This document shows, piece after piece, positions 6,583 through 15,245 of a stretch of DNA of 16,793 nucleotides. Where the stretch lies: IMG/VR virus record IMGVR_UViG_2571042372_000009; one strand, 5' to 3'. Origin of the DNA: a virus (taxonomy: Duplodnaviria; Heunggongvirae; Uroviricota; Caudoviricetes). The position numbers were made by a program, and so were the translations under genes. Each line of letters opens with the position of its first letter. Position 1 is the first letter of the stretch. The notes beneath the pieces are model-generated. The model did no database searches, was not told where the DNA came from, and saw nothing but the letters and a program-made list of their open reading frames with translations.

Positions 6583-6636
6583 TTTTATATTGGCGAGGTG
6601 ACGGGAGTTAAGTAGAATTGCTGCGGGTGCTTGAGG

Positions 6637-6672
6637 CTATCTGCCTCAGGCATGAACACCAAAGGCAGATAG
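6637..6672 (+). promoter_or_regulatory. Perfect 10-bp inverted repeat (CTATCTGCCT ... AGGCAGATAG) in the hok/mok leader
   Basis: Arms at 6637-6646 and 6663-6672 with a 16-nt spacer. Candidate hok mRNA fold-back or antisense-target element, or a protein operator. Confidence 0.4.
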
Positions 6673-6793
6673 AGAAAAGCCCCAGTTAATATTACGCGTC
6701 CTGCAAGACGCTTAACATTAATCTGAGGCTCAATCTATGAACGGCAAATCTAGGTTAGCCTCTTACGTGCCGAAAGGCAAGGAGAAGCAGGCT

Positions 6794-6949
6794 ATGAAGC
6801 AGCAAAAGGCGATGTTAATCGCCCTGATCGTCATCTGTTTAACCGTCATAGTGACGGCACTGGTAACGAGGAAAGACCTCTGCGAGGTACGAATCCGAAC
6901 CGGCCAGACGGAGGTCGCTGTCTTCACAGTTTACGAACCTGAGGAGTAA
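6794..6949 (+). CDS. hokD: Hok/Gef family type I toxin (HokD/RelF-like), 51 aa, nested in the mok frame that starts at 6737
   Basis: MKQQKAMLIALIVICLTVIVTALVTRKDLCEVRIRTGQTEVAVFTVYEPEE matches the Hok/Gef family as recalled. The overlapping upstream in-frame extension (70-aa ORF from 6737) is mok-like. A stable 3' hairpin follows. Confidence 0.85.
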   Translation: MKQQKAMLIALIVICLTVIVTALVTRKDLCEVRIRTGQTEVAVFTVYEPEE

Positions 6950-7116: not shown

Positions 7117-7395
7117 ATGGCGCACGATACCAAATTACACAATTCTGATGATTCTGCCGTCTTTGCCAGCAGGCACGGGCGGCGTTCCCGCACTTTCAAA
7201 TCTGACTGGTTCCAGCATCCCCCATGCACTGAAGAACAGGCCGAGTGGCTAATTCAGTGCTACCGCAGACACGGATACGAGATTAAGAAAGCCCTCAGCC
7301 TCGATTATCGTCACTGGATAATCTCCGTCAGGCTTCCTTACTCCGAACGATCACCGCGTCCGTCCCGCACATTCCAGCAACGCATCTGGAGGTAA
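7117..7395 (+). CDS. Hypothetical protein, about 92 aa; positional analogue of rem in Qin-type prophages
   Basis: First ATG downstream of the hok terminator in the 6988-7395 frame. Its stop TAA at 7393-7395 lies just before the GTG start of the next gene. No motif recognised. Confidence 0.4.
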   Translation: MAHDTKLHNSDDSAVFASRHGRRSRTFKSDWFQHPPCTEEQAEWLIQCYRRHGYEIKKALSLDYRHWIISVRLPYSERSPRPSRTFQQRIWR

Positions 7396-7396
7396 C

Positions 7397-8443
7397 GTGC
7401 GAGTATTACTTCGACCTGTTCTGGTACCGGAACTCGGGCTGGTGATCGTTAAGCCGGGCCGTGAATCCATGCCGGTATTCCACAATACCCGGGTACTGGT
7501 GGAGCCGGAACCGAAAAGCATGCGTAATCTGCCGTCCGGGGTTGTTCCTGCCGTTCGCCAGCCGCTAGTGGAAGACAAAACATTGCTGCCGTTTTTCAGT
7601 AACGCACGGGTGATTCGTGCTGCTGGTGGTGCTGGTGCATTGTCTGACTGGCTGTTGCGCCATATTAAATCCTGCCAGTGGCCACACGGCGATTATCATC
7701 ACAGCGAAACCGTCATTCACCGTTATGGTACCGGCGCAATGGTGTTGTGCTGGCACTGCGACAACCAGCTGCGTGACCAGACATCCGAATCACTCGAGCA
7801 ACTTGCTCATCAAAACCTGTCAGCATGGATGATTGACGTCATACTCCATGCAATGAATGGCTCGCAGGAACGGGAATTATCGCTGGCTGAATTATCCTGG
7901 TGGGCGGTCCGCAATCAGGTGGCGGACGCGCTACCGGAAGCGGTATTACGTCGTTCGCTGGGGTTGCGTGCGGAAAAAATCCGCTCAATGTACCGTGAAA
8001 GCGACATCGTACCGGGAGAGCAGACCGCCACCAGCATACTGAAGCAGCGCACAAAAAATCTTGCGCCGCTGCCTCACGCCCACCAGCAAAACCCGCCACA
8101 GGAAGAGACGGTGGTCAGCATTGCCGTTGATCCTGAGTCTCCGGAATCTTTCATGAAACGACCTAAACGTCGCCGCTGGGTTAACGAGAAATACACACGC
8201 TGGGTGAAGACACAGCCGTGTGCGTGTTGTGGTAAGCCAGCCGACGATCCCCATCACCTGATTGGTCATGGTCAGGGCGGAATGGGGACAAAATCTCACG
8301 ATATTTTCACGCTACCGCTGTGTCGGGAGCATCACAACGAGCTTCATGCGGATCCTCTGGCGTTCGAAGAAAAGCATGGTTCTCAGGTTGATTTAATTTT
8401 TCGTTTTCTTGATCACGCCTTTGCAACTGGCGTGCTTGGGTAA
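7397..8443 (+). CDS. DUF968-like prophage protein (YdfU-like), 348 aa
   Basis: GTG start coupled to the upstream stop, with GGAGG upstream. Cys/His-rich C-terminus (CACCGKPADDPHHLIGHG...CREHHNELH). Lies immediately upstream of rusA-Q, as recalled for DUF968 genes in lambdoid prophages. Confidence 0.7.
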   Translation: MRVLLRPVLVPELGLVIVKPGRESMPVFHNTRVLVEPEPKSMRNLPSGVVPAVRQPLVEDKTLLPFFSNARVIRAAGGAGALSDWLLRHIKSCQWPHGDYHHSETVIHRYGTGAMVLCWHCDNQLRDQTSESLEQLAHQNLSAWMIDVILHAMNGSQERELSLAELSWWAVRNQVADALPEAVLRRSLGLRAEKIRSMYRESDIVPGEQTATSILKQRTKNLAPLPHAHQQNPPQEETVVSIAVDPESPESFMKRPKRRRWVNEKYTRWVKTQPCACCGKPADDPHHLIGHGQGGMGTKSHDIFTLPLCREHHNELHADPLAFEEKHGSQVDLIFRFLDHAFATGVLG

Positions 8444-8455
8444 AAGAGGTGACTG

Positions 8456-8830
8456 ATGCTCATAGATTTGGTTTTACCTTACCCGCCGACGGTGAACACT
8501 TACTGGCGACGCCGTGGCAGCACATATTTTATCTCGGAGGAGGGAAAGCGTTATCGCCGGGCTGTGGCGCTTATTGTTCGCCAGCAGCGGCTGAAATTAA
8601 GCCTGTCCGGAAGGCTGGCGATAAAGGTGATTGCAGAGCCACCGGATAAGCGTCGTCGCGACCTGGACAATATCCTGAAAGCACCGCTGGATGCGCTGAC
8701 GCATGCGGGAGTGTTAATGGACGATGAGCAGTTTGATGAAATCAATATCGTTCGTGGTCAGCCAGTATCTGGTGGACGTATGGGGGTGAAGATTTACCCC
8801 ATAATGCATGAAGAGCAGGTCAAAAAATGA
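8456..8830 (+). CDS. rusA: Holliday junction resolvase RusA, 124 aa
   Basis: SD AAGAGGTGA upstream of the ATG. Conserved PDKRRRDLDN motif as in the RusA family. Stop overlaps the next start (ATGA). Confidence 0.9.
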   Translation: MLIDLVLPYPPTVNTYWRRRGSTYFISEEGKRYRRAVALIVRQQRLKLSLSGRLAIKVIAEPPDKRRRDLDNILKAPLDALTHAGVLMDDEQFDEINIVRGQPVSGGRMGVKIYPIMHEEQVKK

Positions 8831-9648
8831 AACTGGAAGATTTACCGAAATACTACTCCCCAAAATCCCCTGGCCTGACCGATGCATCGGCCTCAACGTC
8901 AAAAGATGCGCTGAGTATCACTGATGTGATGGCCGCGCAGGGCATGACACAGAATCGGGCTGAGATGGGGTTTTCTGCGTTCCTGGGGAAAATGGGCATC
9001 AGTATGAATGACAGGGCGCGGGCAACAGAATTACTGGCAGATTATGCACTCAGTCGGTGCGATCGTGTGGCGGCGTTGAGAAAACTTCCGGCAGAAATAA
9101 AACCGGTAGTGATGCGCATTATGGCTTCGTATGCGTTTGAAGATTATGCCCGTAGCGCGGCGAGCAAAAAACAGTGCCCTTGCTGTCACGGAAAAAAATT
9201 TATTGAAAGCGAGGTTTTTACAAACAAGATCCAGTATCCGGATGGTAAGCCACCAGTGTGGGCAAAGTGCACAAAAGGCGTGTATCCGTCTTACTGGGAA
9301 GAATGGAAAAAAGTCAGGGAGGTGGTAAAAGTTGCCTGTCCGGAGTGTGGCGGAAAGGGTGAGGTTTCCACCGCCTGTAAGGATTGCCGTGGGCGTGGTG
9401 TCGCCATTCATCGTGAAGAGTCGGTAAAACGTGGTATGCCTGTTATCAGAGATTGCCAGCGTTGTGGTGGTCGTGGCTGTGAAAGGCTGCCATCAACGGA
9501 GGCATTTAATGCCATATGCAAAGTGACGAGTGCTATCACGCTTGATACGTGGAAAAAATCAGTGAAACGCTTTTACGATACGTTGGTGGTTCGGTTTGAC
9601 ATTGAAGAGGCATGGGCGGAGCGGCAGTTAAAGAGGGTAACGCGATAG
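8827..9648 (+). CDS. Late-gene antitermination protein Q (phage 82/Qin QuuQ-like), 273 aa
   Basis: N-terminal LPKYYSPKSP and multiple CxxC zinc-binding motifs (CPCCHGKK, CPECGGKGEVSTACKDCRGRG). Followed directly by a lambda-like pR'-tR' pair. Confidence 0.8.
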   Translation: MKLEDLPKYYSPKSPGLTDASASTSKDALSITDVMAAQGMTQNRAEMGFSAFLGKMGISMNDRARATELLADYALSRCDRVAALRKLPAEIKPVVMRIMASYAFEDYARSAASKKQCPCCHGKKFIESEVFTNKIQYPDGKPPVWAKCTKGVYPSYWEEWKKVREVVKVACPECGGKGEVSTACKDCRGRGVAIHREESVKRGMPVIRDCQRCGGRGCERLPSTEAFNAICKVTSAITLDTWKKSVKRFYDTLVVRFDIEEAWAERQLKRVTR

Positions 9649-9653
9649 TGTTG

Positions 9654-9681
9654 TTGATTTTTCCCGAATCTGTGGTAAATT
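9654..9681 (+). promoter_or_regulatory. Late promoter pR'-like (TTGATT - 16 nt - TAAATT) with qut-like initial transcribed region
   Basis: The -10 and downstream TGCTCTAACGATGGG closely resemble recalled lambda pR' (TAAATT TGACTCAACGATGGG). Immediately downstream of Q. Confidence 0.65.
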
Positions 9682-9728
9682 TGCTCTAACGATGGGCGTT
9701 TTATGCCTGACGTTAGAAGATTTTTTAC

Positions 9729-9754
9729 ACCCCGCCGCCTGGCGGGTTTTTTAT
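9729..9754 (+). terminator. tR'-like intrinsic terminator
   Basis: CCCGCC-gcct-GGCGGG hairpin followed by TTTTTTAT, about 65 nt downstream of the predicted pR' start. Confidence 0.75.
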
Positions 9755-9872
9755 GACTGAAATCGCGTCAGTACAGTAAACGCGCTGGTGGCGGTGAATA
9801 CCTGTCTTTCAGCTTGCTGGCTTTTTCGACAAGAGTTATTGGTGTGTCACGTTAACCGGAAAAGGAAAAGAC

Positions 9873-10070
9873 ATGCTAAAACAGCAGGATATGACAGAAA
9901 CCGCCAGAGTGGTGTTTAATGAATTAAGCGTTACCGACCCGGCGACAGTCGGGGAGATAGCGCAGAATACTTACCTTTCACGCGAACGCTGCCAGTTAAT
10001 ACTGACTCAGCTGGTTATGGCGGGTCTGGCAGACTATCAGTTCGGTTGTTACAGACGCCTTCCGCAGTGA
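9873..10070 (+). CDS. Small hypothetical protein with winged-helix/HTH-like segment, 65 aa
   Basis: SD AGGA six nt upstream of the ATG. ...TVGEIAQNTYLSRERCQLILTQLVMAGL... looks like a recognition-helix region. The stop is embedded in a terminator hairpin. Confidence 0.5.
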   Translation: MLKQQDMTETARVVFNELSVTDPATVGEIAQNTYLSRERCQLILTQLVMAGLADYQFGCYRRLPQ

Positions 10071-10082
10071 AGGCTTTTTTAT
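10057..10082 (+). terminator. Intrinsic terminator
   Basis: GCCTTC-cgcagt-GAAGGC hairpin followed by TTTTTTA. Confidence 0.7.
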
Positions 10083-10220
10083 TTGTGGTAAATGGGCGGC
10101 TGGTGGGTGTTAGGGGCACCCACCAGCCATCTGCTCATGCGTCCGGATCACAAGCAAACCTCAGGCCCACTGCTTTGCGCAAAAGCAGAATGAGCCTATC
10201 AGAGACAGGCTTAATGATCC

Positions 10221-11270
10221 ATGCTTAATACTGTAAAAATATCCAGTTGTGAGTTAATCAACGCCGACTGCCTGGAATTTATCCGGTCGTTACCCGAAAA
10301 TTCTGTTGACCTGATAGTCACGGACCCGCCGTACTTTAAAGTGAAGCCTGAGGGCTGGGATAACCAGTGGAAGGGCGACGATGATTACCTGAAGTGGCTG
10401 GACCAGTGTCTGGCGCAGTTCTGGCGGGTGCTGAAACCTGCCGGAAGTCTTTACCTGTTCTGTGGTCATCGCCTGGCATCTGATATCGAAATCATGATGC
10501 GTGAACGCTTCAGTGTGCTGAACCATATTATCTGGGCGAAGCCGTCCGGACGCTGGAACGGATGCAACAAGGAAAGGCTGCGGGCGTATTTCCCCGCCAC
10601 AGAGCGCATTCTGTTCGCGGAACATTATCAGGGGCCGTATCGTCCGAAAGATGCCGGGTATGCGGCGAAGGGCAGTGCACTGAAACAGCATGTGATGGCC
10701 CCGCTGATTTCTTACTTTCGTGATGCGCGCGCGGCCCTGGGGATAACGGCAAAACAGATTGCAGATGCCACAGGAAAGAAAAACATGGTGTCGCACTGGT
10801 TCAGTGCCAGTCAGTGGCAGCTACCGAATGAAAGCGATTATCTGAAATTACAGGCGCTGTTTGCCCGGGTGGCAGAAGAGAAGCATCGGCGTGGTGAACT
10901 GGAAAAGCTCCACCACCAGCTGGTGGATACGTATACCTCACTGAACCGGCAGTATGCGGAGCTGCTGAGTGAATATAAACATCTGCGGCGGTATTTTGGC
11001 GTGACGGTGCAGGTGCCGTATACCGATGTGTGGACGCATAAACCGGTGCAGTTCTATCCCGGGAAACATCCGTGCGAAAAACCGGCAGAAATGCTGCAGC
11101 AGATAATCAGCGCAAGTAGCCGTCCTGGTGATCTGGTTGCGGATTTTTTCATGGGGTCGGGTTCAACGGTAAAAGCGGCGATGGCACTGGGGCGTCGTGC
11201 GATTGGTGTTGAGCTGGAGACCGGACGTTTTGAGCAGACAGTCAGGGAAGTTCAGGATTTAATCGTTTGA
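10221..11270 (+). CDS. Orphan DNA amino-methyltransferase, beta class (N6-adenine or N4-cytosine; DPPY motif), 349 aa
   Basis: Motif IV DPPY near the N-terminus (LIVTDPPYF) and motif I FxGxG near the C-terminus (DLVADFFMGSGSTVKAA). No restriction endonuclease partner in the window. No clear SD. Confidence 0.9.
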   Translation: MLNTVKISSCELINADCLEFIRSLPENSVDLIVTDPPYFKVKPEGWDNQWKGDDDYLKWLDQCLAQFWRVLKPAGSLYLFCGHRLASDIEIMMRERFSVLNHIIWAKPSGRWNGCNKERLRAYFPATERILFAEHYQGPYRPKDAGYAAKGSALKQHVMAPLISYFRDARAALGITAKQIADATGKKNMVSHWFSASQWQLPNESDYLKLQALFARVAEEKHRRGELEKLHHQLVDTYTSLNRQYAELLSEYKHLRRYFGVTVQVPYTDVWTHKPVQFYPGKHPCEKPAEMLQQIISASSRPGDLVADFFMGSGSTVKAAMALGRRAIGVELETGRFEQTVREVQDLIV

Positions 11271-11319
11271 AACGGATGAGATTGCAGAATTAATTACGCA
11301 CCATTATTATTCTGCTCCC

Positions 11320-11395
11320 GGCCCTTTAGCTCAGTGGTGAGAGCGAGCGACTCATAATCGCCAGGTCGCTGGTTCAAATCCAGCAAGGGCCACCA
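11320..11395 (+). tRNA. tRNA with CAU anticodon (Ile2/lysidine type or Met), 76 nt
   Basis: Manual fold: acceptor GGCCCTT/AAGGGCC, D-arm GCTC/GAGC, anticodon loop CTCATAA, T-loop TTCAAAT, 3' CCA encoded. Resembles ileX/ileZ-type genes as recalled. Confidence 0.85.
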
Positions 11396-11402
11396 TCACA
11401 TA

Positions 11403-11479
11403 CCGCCATTAGCTCATCAGGAAAGAGCGCCAGCCTTCGAAGCTGGTTGCGCGGAGTTCGGGTCCCCGAAGGCGGTCCA
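11403..11479 (+). tRNA. tRNA-Arg (UCG anticodon), atypical, 77 nt
   Basis: Manual fold: anticodon stem CCAGC/GCTGG with loop CTTCGAA. One acceptor-stem mismatch (A6/A67), one T-stem mismatch, and T-loop TTCGGGT with G at the usually conserved A58 position. CCA encoded. Confidence 0.6.
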
Positions 11480-11492
11480 TTATCTGTATCCT

Positions 11493-11569
11493 GCGTTGTT
11501 AGCTCAGCCGGACAGAGCAATTGCCTTCTAAGCAATCGGTCACTGGTTCGAATCCAGTACAACGCGCCA
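11493..11569 (+). tRNA. tRNA-Arg (UCU anticodon), 77 nt
   Basis: Manual fold: perfect acceptor stem GCGTTGT/ACAACGC, anticodon stem ATTGC/GCAAT with loop CTTCTAA, T-loop TTCGAAT, CCA encoded. Confidence 0.85.
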
Positions 11570-11584
11570 CACTTATTTTCCCTG

Positions 11585-11608
11585 GCTCGCTTTTGCGGGC
11601 TTTTTTTT
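11585..11608 (+). terminator. Intrinsic terminator after the tRNA cluster
   Basis: GCTCGC-tttt-GCGGGC hairpin (one G-U pair) followed by T8. Confidence 0.65.
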
Positions 11609-11614
11609 AAATGT

Positions 11615-11830
11615 CTCACAATTCAGGCGGTTGACTGTTGTCTGGTTTGCGGGGAGTTTGTTAAAAGAAACTGGCATGGTGAATCCCCCTGTGCGGAGGG
11701 GCAATCAGCGAGTAGGTATATGGGATAATCGCGGATTCAGGTGCTGGTACTGAATTCACCGGGAGGCACCCGGCACCATGCAATGGCACATAGCGCCACT
11801 CTCCAGCCCCTCTCCGGAGGGGCTTTTCTG
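11615..11830 (+). ncRNA. Candidate structured noncoding RNA module, copy A
   Basis: Begins just after a terminator with CTCACAATTCAG...TTGACT. Contains three hairpins (CCCCCT-gtgcgg-AGGGG; CCGGG-aggca-CCCGG; GCCCCTC-tccg-GAGGGGC followed by TTTTCT). The same architecture recurs in copy B while the ORFs are not conserved. Confidence 0.4.
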
Positions 11831-12082
11831 TGCCGGATACATCACAGTTTCTGGAACCTTAGGTACTACAGTATCAGTCAGGGTGCTATATTTTCAGATG
11901 TGATGAAAGCCTGTCAGCAGGCAGGGCGTATCGGAAATGACCCAGTAGAGAAAACGTTGACTCAGATACCGGTGCTGAGTTACCGGGAAACCGGCATCAC
12001 ATGACCGCTATCCTTCCAGGCCCATCCGCTCCGGTGGGCCTTTTTACTGCAGAAAACAGGTTCCCCGTTAAATGCTATGTTG

Positions 12083-12317
12083 CTCACAATTCAGTAAGTT
12101 GACAGTTGCCTGTCAGACTGGGCATTTGTTAAAAAAATTTCGCATGGTGAATCCCCCTGAGCGGAGGGGCGACTGGTGACGGTATAATCTCTGATTATCA
12201 AAACGAGAATGACGCGGGTTTAGTGGCACCGGGCTGAACTCACCGGGAGGCACCCGGCACCATGTGCATGATGATACAGATACGCGGCTTTAGCCCCTCT
12301 CCGGAGGGGTTTTCTTG
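12083..12317 (+). ncRNA. Candidate structured noncoding RNA module, copy B (divergent paralogue of copy A)
   Basis: CTCACAATTCAG...TTGACA start, the same three hairpins with conserved stems, and a terminal GCCCCTC-tccg-GAGGGG + TTTTCTT terminator. Preceded by another terminator (GGCCCA...TGGGCC + T5 at about 12019-12045). Confidence 0.4.
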
Positions 12318-12544
12318 TGGGCAAAAAAAGCCCGCGCTGGGAGACGCGGGCGGCAAGGAATAAACAATAAAACGTGAAGTAATATTTCAGCTGGCGAATA
12401 ATACCCCATAGTAATCACTCTGCGCAACTGCGCGGTCTTTTTCGAATTGCGGGCTGTCGTCTCTCTTCTGCCATTGTCCTGTAACTTCCGGACTTCAGCC
12501 CGCTCCTTATTTTACTCACAATATTATCCCGGCCGGGAGGATTC

Positions 12545-12772
12545 ATGGCATTTAAACACTATGACGTGGTCAGGGCGGTATCGCCGTCAGACCTTGCGAA
12601 ACGACTGACACAAAAACTGAAGGAGGGCTGGCAGCCGTTTGGTAGTCCGGTGGCCATAACCCCTTATACCCTGATGCAGGCGATTGCAGCAGAAGGTGAT
12701 GTGGTGGTCAGTGGTGCAACTGAGCCGGATTGGTACTACGTCATCGTACTGGCCCGGCATTCCAGGCCATAA
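12545..12772 (+). CDS. Small conserved-looking hypothetical phage protein, 75 aa
   Basis: Strong SD GGGAGG five nt upstream of the ATG. Located just upstream of the holin gene. Confidence 0.6.
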   Translation: MAFKHYDVVRAVSPSDLAKRLTQKLKEGWQPFGSPVAITPYTLMQAIAAEGDVVVSGATEPDWYYVIVLARHSRP

Positions 12773-13040
12773 AAGACAGTCTGGCAGTGGGACTAAATGC
12801 ACTGACGCTGATGGATATTACCAAAAATGTAACGTATGGCGTTGAGATAGAAAGTCTGGCGCTGGAGATAAATGCACCGGCATCATCATAAAAAGTGAGC
12901 CAGTCAAATGGAAGGTATCGTTAAACTCACCGGTAGTGTCAGTGGGTCGTCTGAGACGCTTGCATGAGTTATCAGAGCCATCAGTAGTTAACTGGTGGCT
13001 TTTTTATTGTTTTCAGCTTCCGGATAACGGGAGACGGGGT

Positions 13041-13256
13041 ATGGACCAGATGGAAAAAATCACAACAGGTGTGTCATACACCACGTCAGCGGTGGGAACG
13101 GGCTACTGGTTCCTGCAGTTGCTGGACAGGGTTTCCCCGTCTCAGTGGGCGGCAATAGGCGTGCTGGGGAGTCTGCTGTTTGGGCTGCTGACATATCTGA
13201 CTAACCTGTATTTCAAAATCAGAGAGGACCGTCGTAAGGCGGCACGGGGAGAGTAA
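13041..13256 (+). CDS. S: Holin, class II pinholin (phage 21 S-like), 71 aa with dual-start motif
   Basis: MDQMEK... gives Met1 and Met4 starts (71 and 68 aa), as recalled for S21. Two hydrophobic segments and a charged C-terminus [13 protein letters not shown]. Followed by a SAR endolysin. Confidence 0.85.
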
Positions 13257-13260
13257 TTCA

Positions 13261-13605
13261 ATGACTCAAAACTATGAACTGATTGTGAAAGGGATCCGCA
13301 ATTTTGAGAATAAAGTTACGGTAACTTTAGCATTACAGGACAAAGAACGCTTTGACGGTGAAATTTTTGACCTGGACATCTCGCTGGACCGTGTTGAAGG
13401 TGCTGCGCTGGAGTTTTATGAGGCAGCGGCCAGAAGGAGCATCAGACAGGTCTTCCTGGATGTCGCTGCCGGGTTATGTGAAGGGGATGAGCAGTCGCCG
13501 GAAAAGCGCCCCGTAATTTTAGAGGCGCAGAATGTATGGATAACCTACAAAGGAAAGCTACCGGGAAGGATTACTGGTTCCCTGAAGACTCCGCCGAAAT
13601 GGTAG
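13261..13605 (+). CDS. Hypothetical protein between holin and endolysin (YdfR/DUF1327-like by position), 114 aa
   Basis: ATG four nt after the holin stop, with GGGAGAG upstream. Naming is from recall of the essQ-ydfR-rrrQ arrangement and is tentative. Confidence 0.55.
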   Translation: MTQNYELIVKGIRNFENKVTVTLALQDKERFDGEIFDLDISLDRVEGAALEFYEAAARRSIRQVFLDVAAGLCEGDEQSPEKRPVILEAQNVWITYKGKLPGRITGSLKTPPKW

Positions 13606-13843
13606 TTTTGCCAGCATAATTTTCTTCCAGCAATGCCGCCAGCCACTTGAAAGAATTTTGTTGTTCCTGGGACCATTTGGGGTTGCGTGATTCAAAATGA
13701 ATGGATGCCAGCGTTGGCAGCATTTGCTCCCTGGGAATTGATAAGGCCAGATGTGAAAATGCAACAGTGAGGGCATTTACATCATCCCGAAGCCTGGAAA
13801 TGCAGTCGAGCAACTCCTGTAGAGAAATGGTGCTATTGTCCAT
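13571..13843 (-). CDS. Hypothetical protein, 90 aa, convergent with and overlapping the 3' end of the previous gene
   Basis: Good SD (AAGAGGA) upstream of the ATG on the minus strand. Helical-looking product. Overlaps 13571-13605 of the plus-strand ORF, so one of the two may be spurious. Confidence 0.35.
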   Translation of the reverse strand: MDNSTISLQELLDCISRLRDDVNALTVAFSHLALSIPREQMLPTLASIHFESRNPKWSQEQQNSFKWLAALLEENYAGKTTISAESSGNQ

Positions 13844-13948
13844 AAATAATCCTCTTGATTGTCTTTACCTTTTCCCCGCCTGATTCAACAGGCCGGGACA
13901 GATAAACATATCCAGGGTTCAGAAACCGATAAATCCTGATAAATATCC

Positions 13949-14482
13949 ATGAACGCAAAAATCAAATACGGCCTGTCAGCTGCAGTTCTGGCGCTGATTG
14001 GAGCAGGCGCATCAGCTCCTCAGATACTTGACCAGTTTCTGGATGAAAAAGAGGGTAACCACACTACGGCATACCGCGATGGTTCCGGCAACTGGACCAT
14101 CTGTCGGGGGGCCACGATGGTGGATGGAAAACCCGTTTTTCCCGGTATGAAACTGTCGAAGGAAAAATGCGACCAGGTCAACGCCATTGAGCGTGATAAG
14201 GCGCTGGCATGGGTGGAGAAAAACATCAAAGTGCCATTGAGCGAACCCCAGAAAGCGGGGATCGCGTCATTCTGTCCGTACAACATTGGTCCCGGTAAGT
14301 GTTTCCCGTCGACGTTTTATAAACGAATTAATGCAGGTGATCGCAGGGGAGCGTGTGAGGCGATTCGCTGGTGGATTAAGGACGGTGGCAGAGACTGCCG
14401 TATTCGTTCAAACAACTGCTACGGTCAGGTATCCCGTCGTGACCAGGAGAGCGCGCTGGCGTGCTGGGGTATCGACAGATAA
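13949..14482 (+). CDS. R: SAR endolysin (T4-lysozyme-like muramidase, phage 21 R-like), 177 aa
   Basis: N-terminal signal-anchor-release segment KYGLSAAVLALIGAGASAP and catalytic E-x8-D-x5-T triad (EGNHTTAYRDGSGNWT). Confidence 0.9.
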   Translation: MNAKIKYGLSAAVLALIGAGASAPQILDQFLDEKEGNHTTAYRDGSGNWTICRGATMVDGKPVFPGMKLSKEKCDQVNAIERDKALAWVEKNIKVPLSEPQKAGIASFCPYNIGPGKCFPSTFYKRINAGDRRGACEAIRWWIKDGGRDCRIRSNNCYGQVSRRDQESALACWGIDR

Positions 14483-14575
14483 GCAGAATATTTTGCTGAA
14501 AAATAAGGCATGGCCACGCGGGCGGATAACATGAAATCCTGCGAAGTGGCGAAACGTAAGTGAATAAAAGTAAAA

Positions 14576-14610
14576 ACCCCGTTTGTTGGCACCAAGCGGG
14601 GTTTTGTGTT
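14576..14610 (+). terminator. Putative intrinsic terminator after the endolysin gene
   Basis: ACCCCG...CGGGGT hairpin with a long loop, followed by TTTTGTGTTT. Confidence 0.45.
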
Positions 14611-14680
14611 TCCTGACTCCGGAAAAGTCAAAGGAGAAAGTGTGTTTGATTTTAGCAAACTGATTCGGGAGATTCGAGTG

Positions 14681-14779
14681 ATGGCTGAAAAATTATCCAC
14701 CTGGAAGTTCATTCTTATCTGGCTGGTGTTTGTGATTATGGCCTCTGGTTATTTCATCGGTCAGATACGCTGGTGGTGA
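14681..14779 (+). CDS. Candidate small membrane peptide, 32 aa, between endolysin and Rz
   Basis: ATG with GGGAG nine nt upstream. Product [32 protein letters not shown] is one transmembrane helix. Its stop TGA is followed one nt later by the Rz ATG (TGAAATG). Under 60 aa, so absent from the ORF track. Confidence 0.35.
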
Positions 14780-14780
14780 A

Positions 14781-15245
14781 ATGAACCGCGTACTGTGCGT
14801 GGTCATCATTGCCCTGCTGGTGGCCTGTGGTGCGCTTAGTCTGGGGCTGAATCATTACCGTGATAACGCCATTACCTACAAAGCCCAGCGCGACAAAAAT
14901 GTCAGAGAACTGAAGCTGGCGAACGCGGCAATTACTGACATGCAGATGCGTCAGCGTGATGTTGCTGCGCTCGATGCAAAATACACGAAGGAGTTAGCTG
15001 ATGCGAAAGCTGAAAATGATGCTCTGCGTGATGATGTTGCCGCTGGTCGTCGTCGGTTGCACATCAAAGCAGTCTGTCAGTCAGTGCGTGAAGCCACCAC
15101 CGCCTCCGGCGTGGATAATGCAGCCTCCCCCCGACTGGCAGACACCGCTGAACGGGATTATTTCACCCTCAGAGCGCGACTGATAATAATGCAAAAACAA
15201 CTTGAAGGGGCACAGCTATACATTCGAGAGCAATGCCTCAGATAA
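14781..15245 (+). CDS. Rz: Spanin inner-membrane subunit Rz (i-spanin), 154 aa
   Basis: N-terminal transmembrane segment, coiled-coil-like body, and an embedded Rz1 gene in the +1 frame. Confidence 0.85.
15001..15183 (+). CDS. Rz1: Spanin outer-membrane lipoprotein subunit Rz1 (o-spanin), 60 aa, embedded in Rz
   Basis: Signal peptide with lipobox VVGC and a proline-rich mature region ([13 protein letters not shown]), entirely inside Rz in another frame. Confidence 0.8.

Follow-up and report, generated by a model that had tools for sequence, protein, structure and literature searches.

The tRNA gene cluster ileZ-argN-argO, with the anticodons CAU, UCG and UCU in that order, is known from Stx and other lambdoid phages. 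Its gene names reportedly go back to the work of Plunkett et al. in 1999 on phage 933W. The cluster is annotated, for example, in the records AP012536, AM072972 and NC_049941. In phage Stx2a_1447 the order runs from Q, by way of further sequence, to a methylase gene, ileZ, argN, argO, stx2A and stx2B, while in Nil3 the three tRNA genes come after Q and tR'. A full-text literature search returned nothing specific on the ileZ, argN and argO tRNAs, and a Stx-phage paper merely restates the general idea of codon compensation (PMC7946995).

The window analysed here, by which we mean the whole 16,793-nucleotide stretch of the IMG/VR virus record IMGVR_UViG_2571042372_000009, carries a trio of the same kind. 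ARAGORN, run on the whole 16.8-kb window, finds exactly three tRNAs, all on the + strand, and thereby confirms the coordinates and the anticodons (CAU, UCG, UCU) that an earlier note on this DNA had proposed. These are ileZ, an intact gene of tRNA-Ile2 type with anticodon CAU (11320..11395, + strand; Rfam 72.5 bits, E = 1.6e-14), argN, an eroded allele of a tRNA-Arg(UCG) gene (11403..11479, + strand; 43.4 bits, E = 1.7e-06), and argO, an intact tRNA-Arg(UCU) gene (11493..11569, + strand; 70.1 bits, E = 7.9e-14). The scores were obtained with the Rfam model RF00005 (gathering score 29), and the E-values put a chance match out of the question for each of the three genes. RefSeq (PGAP) labels them tRNA-Ile, tRNA-Arg and tRNA-Arg, with a pseudogene flag on none. 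ARAGORN labels the CAU gene as Met, from the anticodon alone. Its acceptor stem GGCCCUU/AAGGGCC provides the pairs C4-G69 and C5-G68, which we take to be TilS determinants, and its best host homologue in genomes without an exact copy, found in 5,426 of 5,426 genomes at 89-92% identity, is annotated as tRNA-Ile. By these sequence features the CAU gene is of tRNA-Ile2 type rather than tRNA-Met, and lysidine modification of its anticodon is predicted.

With the 401-nt region of the trio as query, 297 phage records match, mostly Stx2-converting phages, at 80-99% identity (92-94% overall), with a query coverage of at least 80% in 273 of them. Many of these records carry the names ileZ, argN and argO, the arrangement to which the earlier note had likened the trio. 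The window shares with the Stx and lambdoid cluster the gene order and the anticodons, the sequence of ileZ and argO (identical), the position between Q and the lysis genes, in many phages the methyltransferase gene on the 5' side, and the terminator after argO. We identify the trio as the ileZ-argN-argO cassette that Stx and other lambdoid phages are already known to carry; as a discovery it is minor, the cassette having been known since the 933W genome and its exact sequence being annotated in hundreds of RefSeq genomes. Unlike in Stx phages, it is followed by two STnc100 copies and a lysis cassette; the stx genes directly downstream, which are typical of Stx phages without defining the cassette, are absent here. 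The window Q is of the two-repeat PF03589 type, as opposed to the Q type of 933W or lambda, and the window argN differs from the canonical Stx2-phage alleles by A58G, A6.A67 and A52.C62. We consider it likely, on comparative sequence data, that the outer two tRNAs are functional and selected, while argN of the window is a degraded, weakened or inactive member of a known cassette.

The window is a Qin-like, non-Stx lambdoid prophage with the gene order cro, ydaT, replication genes, hokD/sok, a DUF968 gene, rusA and Q, followed by a 65-aa ORF, the methyltransferase gene, the three tRNA genes, a terminator and the two STnc100 copies, and then by holin, ydfR, lysozyme, Rz and terminase genes. The 4.5 kb around the tRNAs are 100% identical to many ExPEC and APEC E. 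coli chromosomes, including that of the type strain ATCC 11775. The antiterminator gene Q (8827..9648, + strand, 273 aa; Pfam PF03589 Antiterm, E = 2e-49; 'antitermination protein' in RefSeq) is followed straight after its stop codon by a lambda-like pR' (9654..9696, + strand), consisting of TTGATT (9654-9659), a 16-nt spacer, TAAATT (9676-9681) and the early-transcribed AACGATGGG (9688-9696). In alignment, TAAATT and AACGATGGG are identical to the region right after lambda Q, a stretch that we take to be pR' with its pause-inducing element, the lambda record carrying no such annotation. About 45 nt 3' of the pR'-like start, the terminator scan places a strong intrinsic, tR'-like terminator (9731..9752, + strand; CCCGCCGCCTGGCGGG then TTTTTT), and over the interval 9600-13000 it counts 14 terminator-like sites against 3.5 expected, as would be anticipated for a Q-antiterminated leader region. 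The 65-aa ORF and the DNA methyltransferase gene (10221..11270, + strand; Pfam PF01555, E = 3.6e-43), a neighbour also found in many Stx2 phages, separate Q from the trio, with the methyltransferase gene directly 5' of the cassette, and the holin, lysozyme and Rz genes occupy 12936-15245, which puts the tRNAs between Q/pR' and the lysis genes. The window contains no stx or other toxin cargo; the two STnc100 copies and a DUF1737 fragment lie 3' of the cassette. The cassette would be an insertion in the late region, 3' of Q and the lambda-like pR', of a Qin-like prophage of extraintestinal E. coli.

Within this region the trio is bounded by what look like signals of its own. A putative sigma-70-like promoter (11282..11310, + strand; TTGCAG at 11282-11287, a 17-nt spacer and TATTAT at 11305-11310) ends 9 nt 5' of the mature 5' end of ileZ. 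When the 90 nt upstream of ileZ were aligned from 153 listed loci, a TTGnnn-(16-17)-TAT[T/C]AT element was present in all 153, with the 17-nt spacer in 151 and TATCAT in four. The element is kept across at least four unrelated upstream contexts (the methylase 3' end, a terminator and other genes), and it is at the -35 TTG hexamer that homology between these contexts begins. A generic promoter scan of 9600-13000 found no promoter on the + strand, and it missed the cassette element because the -35 hexamer matches only three of the six consensus bases; both promoters proposed here, pR'-like and cassette, rest on homology or conservation. On the 3' side the cassette is closed by an intrinsic terminator (11584..11609, + strand; GGCTCGCTTTTGCGGGCT then T8), found by the terminator scan and common to Stx2a_1447 and Nil3; homology to Stx2a_1447 stops just past it, and the end coordinate 11609 given earlier for the trio includes it. 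A matching hairpin lies 3' of argO in 81 of the 129 loci listed, with variants in about a dozen more and a different downstream context in about 30. By its sequence the cassette packs a promoter-like element, the three tRNA genes and the terminator into about 330 bp, and it looks like a self-contained, moron-like unit that could be active in lysogens and gain further from Q-dependent read-through. The earlier placement downstream of Q in the late operon thus holds for position, with Q and a lambda-like pR' upstream, but not for passive membership: given its own promoter-like element and terminator, the cassette is probably more than a passive stretch of the late transcript.

Inspection and a position-by-position script locate three lesions in the window argN: the mismatch A6.A67 in the acceptor stem, the mismatch A52.C62 in the T stem, and a T loop UUCGGGU that places G at position 58. 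All three features had been pointed out from the letters alone and are upheld here; the cmscan alignment, too, flags pairs in both the acceptor and the T stem as non-standard and leaves the consensus T-loop A58 unmatched. Standard pairs make up 19 of the 21 in the stems, short of complete 7/4/5/5-bp pairing, and with G58 in place the T54-A58 reverse-Hoogsteen pair is absent. Covariance scoring likewise finds the middle tRNA less than fully canonical (43.4 bits, against 72.5 and 70.1 for ileZ and argO); its score is above the gathering value of 29, but 13-15 bits under that of intact alleles and 27-29 bits under that of its neighbours. The minimum free energy (MFE) structure of the window allele (-27.0 kcal/mol, z = -0.45 against shuffles) is no better than that of shuffled sequence and is not a cloverleaf: two acceptor pairs are lost, as is the canonical T arm. 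The Stx2a_1447 argN, in comparison, folds into a cloverleaf-like structure at -36.0 kcal/mol (z = -1.9), which makes the window allele about 9 kcal/mol less stable. An intact argN would be a canonical tRNA-Arg(UCG), with CGA as the codon it reads directly. With A58G, which removes the T-loop T54-A58 reverse-Hoogsteen pair, and with its two stem mismatches, the window argN is probably poorly folded, processed or charged.

The most serious alternative, which we regard as rather unlikely, is that the window argN is still a working tRNA-Arg(UCG), its lesions being tolerated and CGA and CGG being decoded as by the intact alleles. The 77-nt gene is still called by ARAGORN, by Rfam (43.4 against 29 bits) and by PGAP, and it retains U8, A14, G18, G19, U33, G53, T54 (U54), U55, C56 and C61, together with A20, C35, an intact anticodon loop CUUCGAA and an encoded CCA end. 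E. coli ArgRS recognises A20, C35, U or G at position 36 and a purine at position 73 as identity elements; in argN, A20, C35 and G36 are present and invariant, and the discriminator is U73 in every allele, intact ones included, while argO has G73. Functional tRNAs may tolerate single mismatches, and a protonated A.C can pair, which counts against inactivation. The exact 97-nt argN allele (with spacers) is moreover fixed in 230 of the 5,426 complete E. coli genomes, under the annotation tRNA-Arg; it is common and stable in these 230 genomes, for which a recent spread of the whole prophage may be the explanation. Against a working gene stand the 13-15 bits lost relative to intact alleles, the loss of about 9 kcal/mol along with the cloverleaf MFE structure, and the lack of A58, a base invariant in all 22 intact haplotypes listed.

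The allele series of the middle slot bears on the same question. IMG/VR was searched with exact 41-nt probes in argO and, reciprocally, in ileZ, yielding at least about 160 loci; with the probes lying only in the outer genes, argN was sampled without bias. When the window, Stx2a_1447 and Nil3 are aligned, all three agree in every letter of ileZ and argO but differ at 7-8 positions in argN. The oddities are absent from the argN of Stx2a_1447, which is fully canonical (A6-U67, G52-C62, A58), and are hence a property of the window allele and not of the argN family. The classed set comprises at least 132 loci that have an argO-like gene and extend far enough upstream, including five leftover loci that are single cases, and the Rfam scores given for each class are those of representative sequences. 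Among the approximately 132 loci listed, 51 have an intact cloverleaf with A58 (55.9-58.4 bits), four have G58 only (54.0 bits), and 27 are of the window type with A6.A67, A52.C62 and G58 (43.4 or 42.9 bits); Nil3, outside the 132, has A52.C62 only (50.4 bits). A further seven listed loci are of the 'GGCAATCCA' type, with additional lesions in the acceptor stem, in the anticodon stem, at G19 and at T54, and score below threshold (26.4 bits). The anticodon arm is replaced, with a variable poly-G run, in 33 listed loci and deleted in four (leaving 61 nt), with no Rfam hit for either class, and in two loci among those listed a 3' fragment alone remains, which was not scored. ARAGORN finds no tRNA in the arm-replaced or arm-deleted classes and fails on some loci of the 'GGCAATCCA' type. 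The argN scores drop stepwise through these classes, but those of ileZ and argO at these loci remain at about 72 and 70 bits. One of the intact haplotypes differs from the window argN at just four sites, all inside a 16-nt span covering the T arm and the 3' strand of the acceptor stem, which identifies the window allele as a close derivative of an intact gene. A single origin of G58 followed by decay is plausible, and we do not claim it, G58 being found on at least three backgrounds and recombination being possible.

The three genes also differ in the constraint acting on them. Among listed loci with a recognisable argN anticodon arm, a filter that drops a few argO variants and so slightly underestimates argO, nucleotide diversity is 0.082 in argN, 0.001-0.002 in ileZ and 0.006-0.008 in argO, compared with 0.19 in the argN-argO spacer and 0.17-0.18 in the flanks. 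Without the filter, 59 argO sequences are identical, most of the others have one to three changes, and a few have their 3' half replaced; ileZ is identical in about 104 of 116 argO-anchored loci among those listed. By this measure ileZ and argO are intact and under strong purifying selection. Within argN the picture depends on position 58. In the 22 distinct A58 haplotypes among those listed, 99.4% of stem cells are paired, A58 is present in 22 of 22, and the common changes are G.U-compatible stem transitions or fall at positions 17, 20a, 57 and 60 or in the variable loop, all of which usually vary in tRNAs; the pattern is that expected of a functional tRNA under purifying selection. In the 16 distinct G58 haplotypes among those listed, 89.6% of stem cells are paired, and there are entire sub-clades in which the mismatches are fixed. 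One or more stem mismatches are found in three of the 22 A58 and in 13 of the 16 G58 haplotypes listed (Fisher p = 4e-5, a value that overstates independence, the haplotypes being related). A covariation check found zero double compensatory changes in either argN class, and covariation is mute on argN structure because the family is too young.

For the window allele itself, the segregating sites in its clade (four new in argN, two in ileZ and two in argO) put the changes in argN not significantly above those in its neighbours, a result that is underpowered and can be claimed for a working gene. Against this, the G58 class carries more disruptive changes, and the derivatives in the window allele's own clade include CCA -> UCA, G10U and G50A. 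At the family level, argN combines two marks of a pseudogene, relaxed constraint and disruptive lesions. The comparative data (allele series, scores, diversity, pairing and folding) speak in favour of the suggestion in the earlier note that the middle tRNA may be a pseudogene or non-canonical.

Retention of argN is associated with stx2 without depending on it. Linkage was counted on listed loci with at least 600 nt of downstream sequence. Where stx2 is linked to a locus of the intact class, in 10 loci, argN is intact every time, and L025, a further stx2-linked locus, is a T54G variant; stx2 lies downstream in none of the 62 eroded loci listed (Fisher p = 1.4e-4, with independence overstated, the loci being related and redundant). 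Conversely, stx2 is absent from 38 of the 48 intact-argN loci listed with enough downstream sequence, which indicates that stx is not needed for argN retention. In stx2A itself, ATA (15 of 319 codons) and AGA (six) are very frequent, but CGA occurs just twice. The best-supported reading of these sequences is that argN loss would be a family-wide pattern outside Stx2 phages.

Codon demand in the prophage is consistent with a supply role for the outer genes. In 28 annotated prophage genes (5,191 codons), as compared with 39 host core genes (13,669 codons), the frequencies per 1,000 are 11.2 against 3.4 for ATA (3.2-fold), 7.9 against 1.7 for AGA (4.7-fold), 7.3 against 0.9 for AGG (8.3-fold), 6.7 against 3.2 for CGA (2.1-fold) and 12.3 against 3.5 for CGG (3.5-fold), and all five differences are significant. 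The enrichment supports the idea of codon supply by ileZ and argO. Most likely, ileZ, its CAU anticodon made into one with lysidine, would supplement a scarce host tRNA for AUA, and argO a scarce host tRNA for AGA and AGG, provided that both tRNAs are expressed and charged. Among the relevant codons enrichment is weakest for CGA, which fits argN as the most dispensable of the three and counts against a gene still at work in the window. The suggestion that the rare-codon tRNAs may boost translation of late genes or cargo survives in part: the prophage is enriched in the expected codons, but early genes and morons are richer in rare codons than late genes (ATA and CGA at 14.6 and 9.7 per 1,000 in early genes against 6.2 and 5.2 in lysis and morphogenesis genes), and there is no stx-like cargo downstream.

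Two further readings treat the variability of the middle slot as something other than erosion. The first, to which we attach very little credence, is that the slot acts as a hotspot for tRNA turnover, where anticodon arms are swapped or lost and the 3' part with acceptor and T-arm sequence is always kept, and that it has a second role. If this were so, the slot would serve, for example, as a tRNA-like processing signal for argO, or as a decoy or variant tRNA in conflicts with tRNA-targeting toxins, and the window argN would be one functional state of the slot element. The second, which we hold to be very improbable, is that the slot is under diversifying selection, as a decoy or resistant stand-in for host tRNAs that anticodon nucleases or colicin D attack, or is a tRNA-like processing or regulatory element, in which case the 3' part with acceptor and T-arm sequence would be what matters. 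Here one could cite that the slot is far more variable than ileZ and argO, that alternative anticodons occur in it (UCU, GCG and a UUU form with C33), and that its 3' 25 nt (GGGTCCCCGATGGCGGTCCA) are kept even in remnants without the anticodon arm or without ileZ. However, the anticodon stem-loop, the usual nuclease target, is the most conserved part of the 77-nt argN alleles, and in the window allele it is the acceptor and T arms that carry structural lesions. Many of the variants, moreover, go unrecognised by any tRNA finder, being deletions, arm replacements or stretches of slippage-prone poly-G, and the intact alleles vary at normally variable or G.U-compatible sites, as expected under ordinary purifying selection. 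A chance match or an assembly artefact, for which only the lower score could be cited, is refuted as the origin of the middle tRNA, and is so improbable as to need no further discussion, by its E-value (1.7e-06 for the whole window, 1.2e-08 locally), by clear homology to annotated argN genes and by the identical sequence in 230 independent complete genomes.

Erosion of argN between two conserved neighbours, the reading we prefer, has consequences for how such genes are counted. Roughly half or more of the middle-slot copies listed are damaged or unrecognisable remnants, and eroded argN genes are annotated as ordinary tRNA-Arg, suggesting that the number of 'phage-supplied tRNAs' counted in E. 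coli is higher than the functional capacity. The contrast within 250 bp, with ileZ and argO frozen and argN eroding, would provide a natural readout of which phage tRNAs are needed by prophage or host. By this readout the supply for AUA and for AGA and AGG appears to be needed, while that for CGA appears to be needed only in some phages.

Set beside other known systems, the window genes have both counterparts and distinguishing features. Host E. coli has tRNA genes of the same kinds as the outer two, namely ileX and ileY (tRNA-Ile2, CAU), the window ileZ being 89-92% identical to the host tRNA-Ile gene, and argU (tRNA-Arg, UCU), with which the window argO shares its anticodon and its reading of AGA and AGG; the window tRNAs differ from these in being phage-borne extras with their own putative promoter and terminator. 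To our knowledge, the E. coli K-12 tRNA set has no counterpart with a UCG anticodon, CGA being read by an inosine tRNA. The architecture of the cassette resembles that of phage morons, autonomous inserts of promoter, gene and terminator in lambdoid late regions: in the cassette a conserved -35/-10 element stands at the 5' break in homology and a terminator at the 3' break. Morons carry a protein gene, whereas the window cassette carries tRNA genes and its promoter is putative. Finally, the window argN resembles tRNA pseudogenes and remnants in having lost a near-invariant base, in its stem mismatches and in a covariance score lower than that of its orthologues, and the argN family shares with them a relaxed constraint accompanied by deletions. 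It differs from them in scoring above detection thresholds and in being annotated as a functional gene, and its loss of function is one that we infer from the lesions and from the fate of its relatives.

All argN alleles, the intact and the eroded alike, have U73 as discriminator base (window position 11476), as against G73 in argO. tRNA-Arg species of E. coli generally carry a purine at position 73, and set against this background the uniform U73 of the phage gene raises the possibility that argN, even where intact, may be a sub-optimal substrate for ArgRS. Intact argN alleles also score only 56-58 bits, compared with about 70 for the neighbouring tRNAs.

The argN position between ileZ and argO takes several further forms in other IMG/VR loci. 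Among L023 and L094, middle-slot anticodons UCU and GCG occur in one locus each; the UCU gene is otherwise intact and its anticodon would duplicate the specificity of argO, while the GCG gene has an anticodon-stem mismatch and lies in a locus from which ileZ is absent. In about 30 loci besides L106, L058 and L048, what lies between ileZ and argO is an argN remnant in which unrelated sequence replaces the anticodon arm, and which is recognized by no tRNA finder. These remnants contain a poly-G run of 5 to about 13 G, differing by locus, which suggests slipped-strand variation. A separate phage tRNA cluster, found in L124 (approximately 7190-7560), L126, L132 and 14 other loci, contains a clear argN homolog after ileZ, followed by tRNA-Thr(UGU) and tRNA-Gly(UCC). 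This homolog differs in its anticodon arm and is called tRNA-Lys(UUU) by ARAGORN; position 33 is C instead of U, and its T stem contains an A.C mismatch.

Two pseudogenes annotated in RefSeq lie between the tRNAs and the holin gene: a truncated DUF1737 gene (approximately 12545-12763, plus strand) and a partial gene for a hypothetical protein (RefSeq/PGAP; approximately 11664-11789, minus strand). The prophage has thus undergone some degradation here, although ileZ and argO are perfect. The window also carries a full type I toxin-antitoxin module of the hok/sok type, with both sok RNA (6625-6799, plus strand; RF01794, 113 bits) and the hokD coding sequence (approximately 6794-6949, plus strand).

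Immediately 3' of the PF03589-type Q gene is a lambda-like pR', together with a terminator (9654-9752, plus strand). It reads TTGATT-16-TAAATT, then AACGATGGG, with -10 and pause elements identical to those of lambda, and the strong terminator lies about 45 nt downstream. Terminator-like sites number 14 at window positions 9600-13000, against 3.5 expected.

Immediately 3' of the tRNA cassette are two copies of the prophage sRNA STnc100 (RF02076), at 11645-11835 (136 bits; PGAP sets the hypothetical-protein pseudogene on the strand opposite this copy) and 12113-12322 (161 bits), both on the plus strand and each ending in a terminator-like hairpin. A 2026 preprint links STnc100 with the PasD sRNAs. 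In the related loci L029 (2840-2901) and L038 (966-1027), STnc100 is adjoined by the anti-sRNA AgvB (RF02702, 96.5 bits), overlapped by a sub-threshold AsxR match; the window has no counterpart of this. The Stx2 phage Stx2a_1447, in contrast to the window with its two copies 3' of the tRNA cassette, has a single STnc100 copy, located 3' of stx2B.
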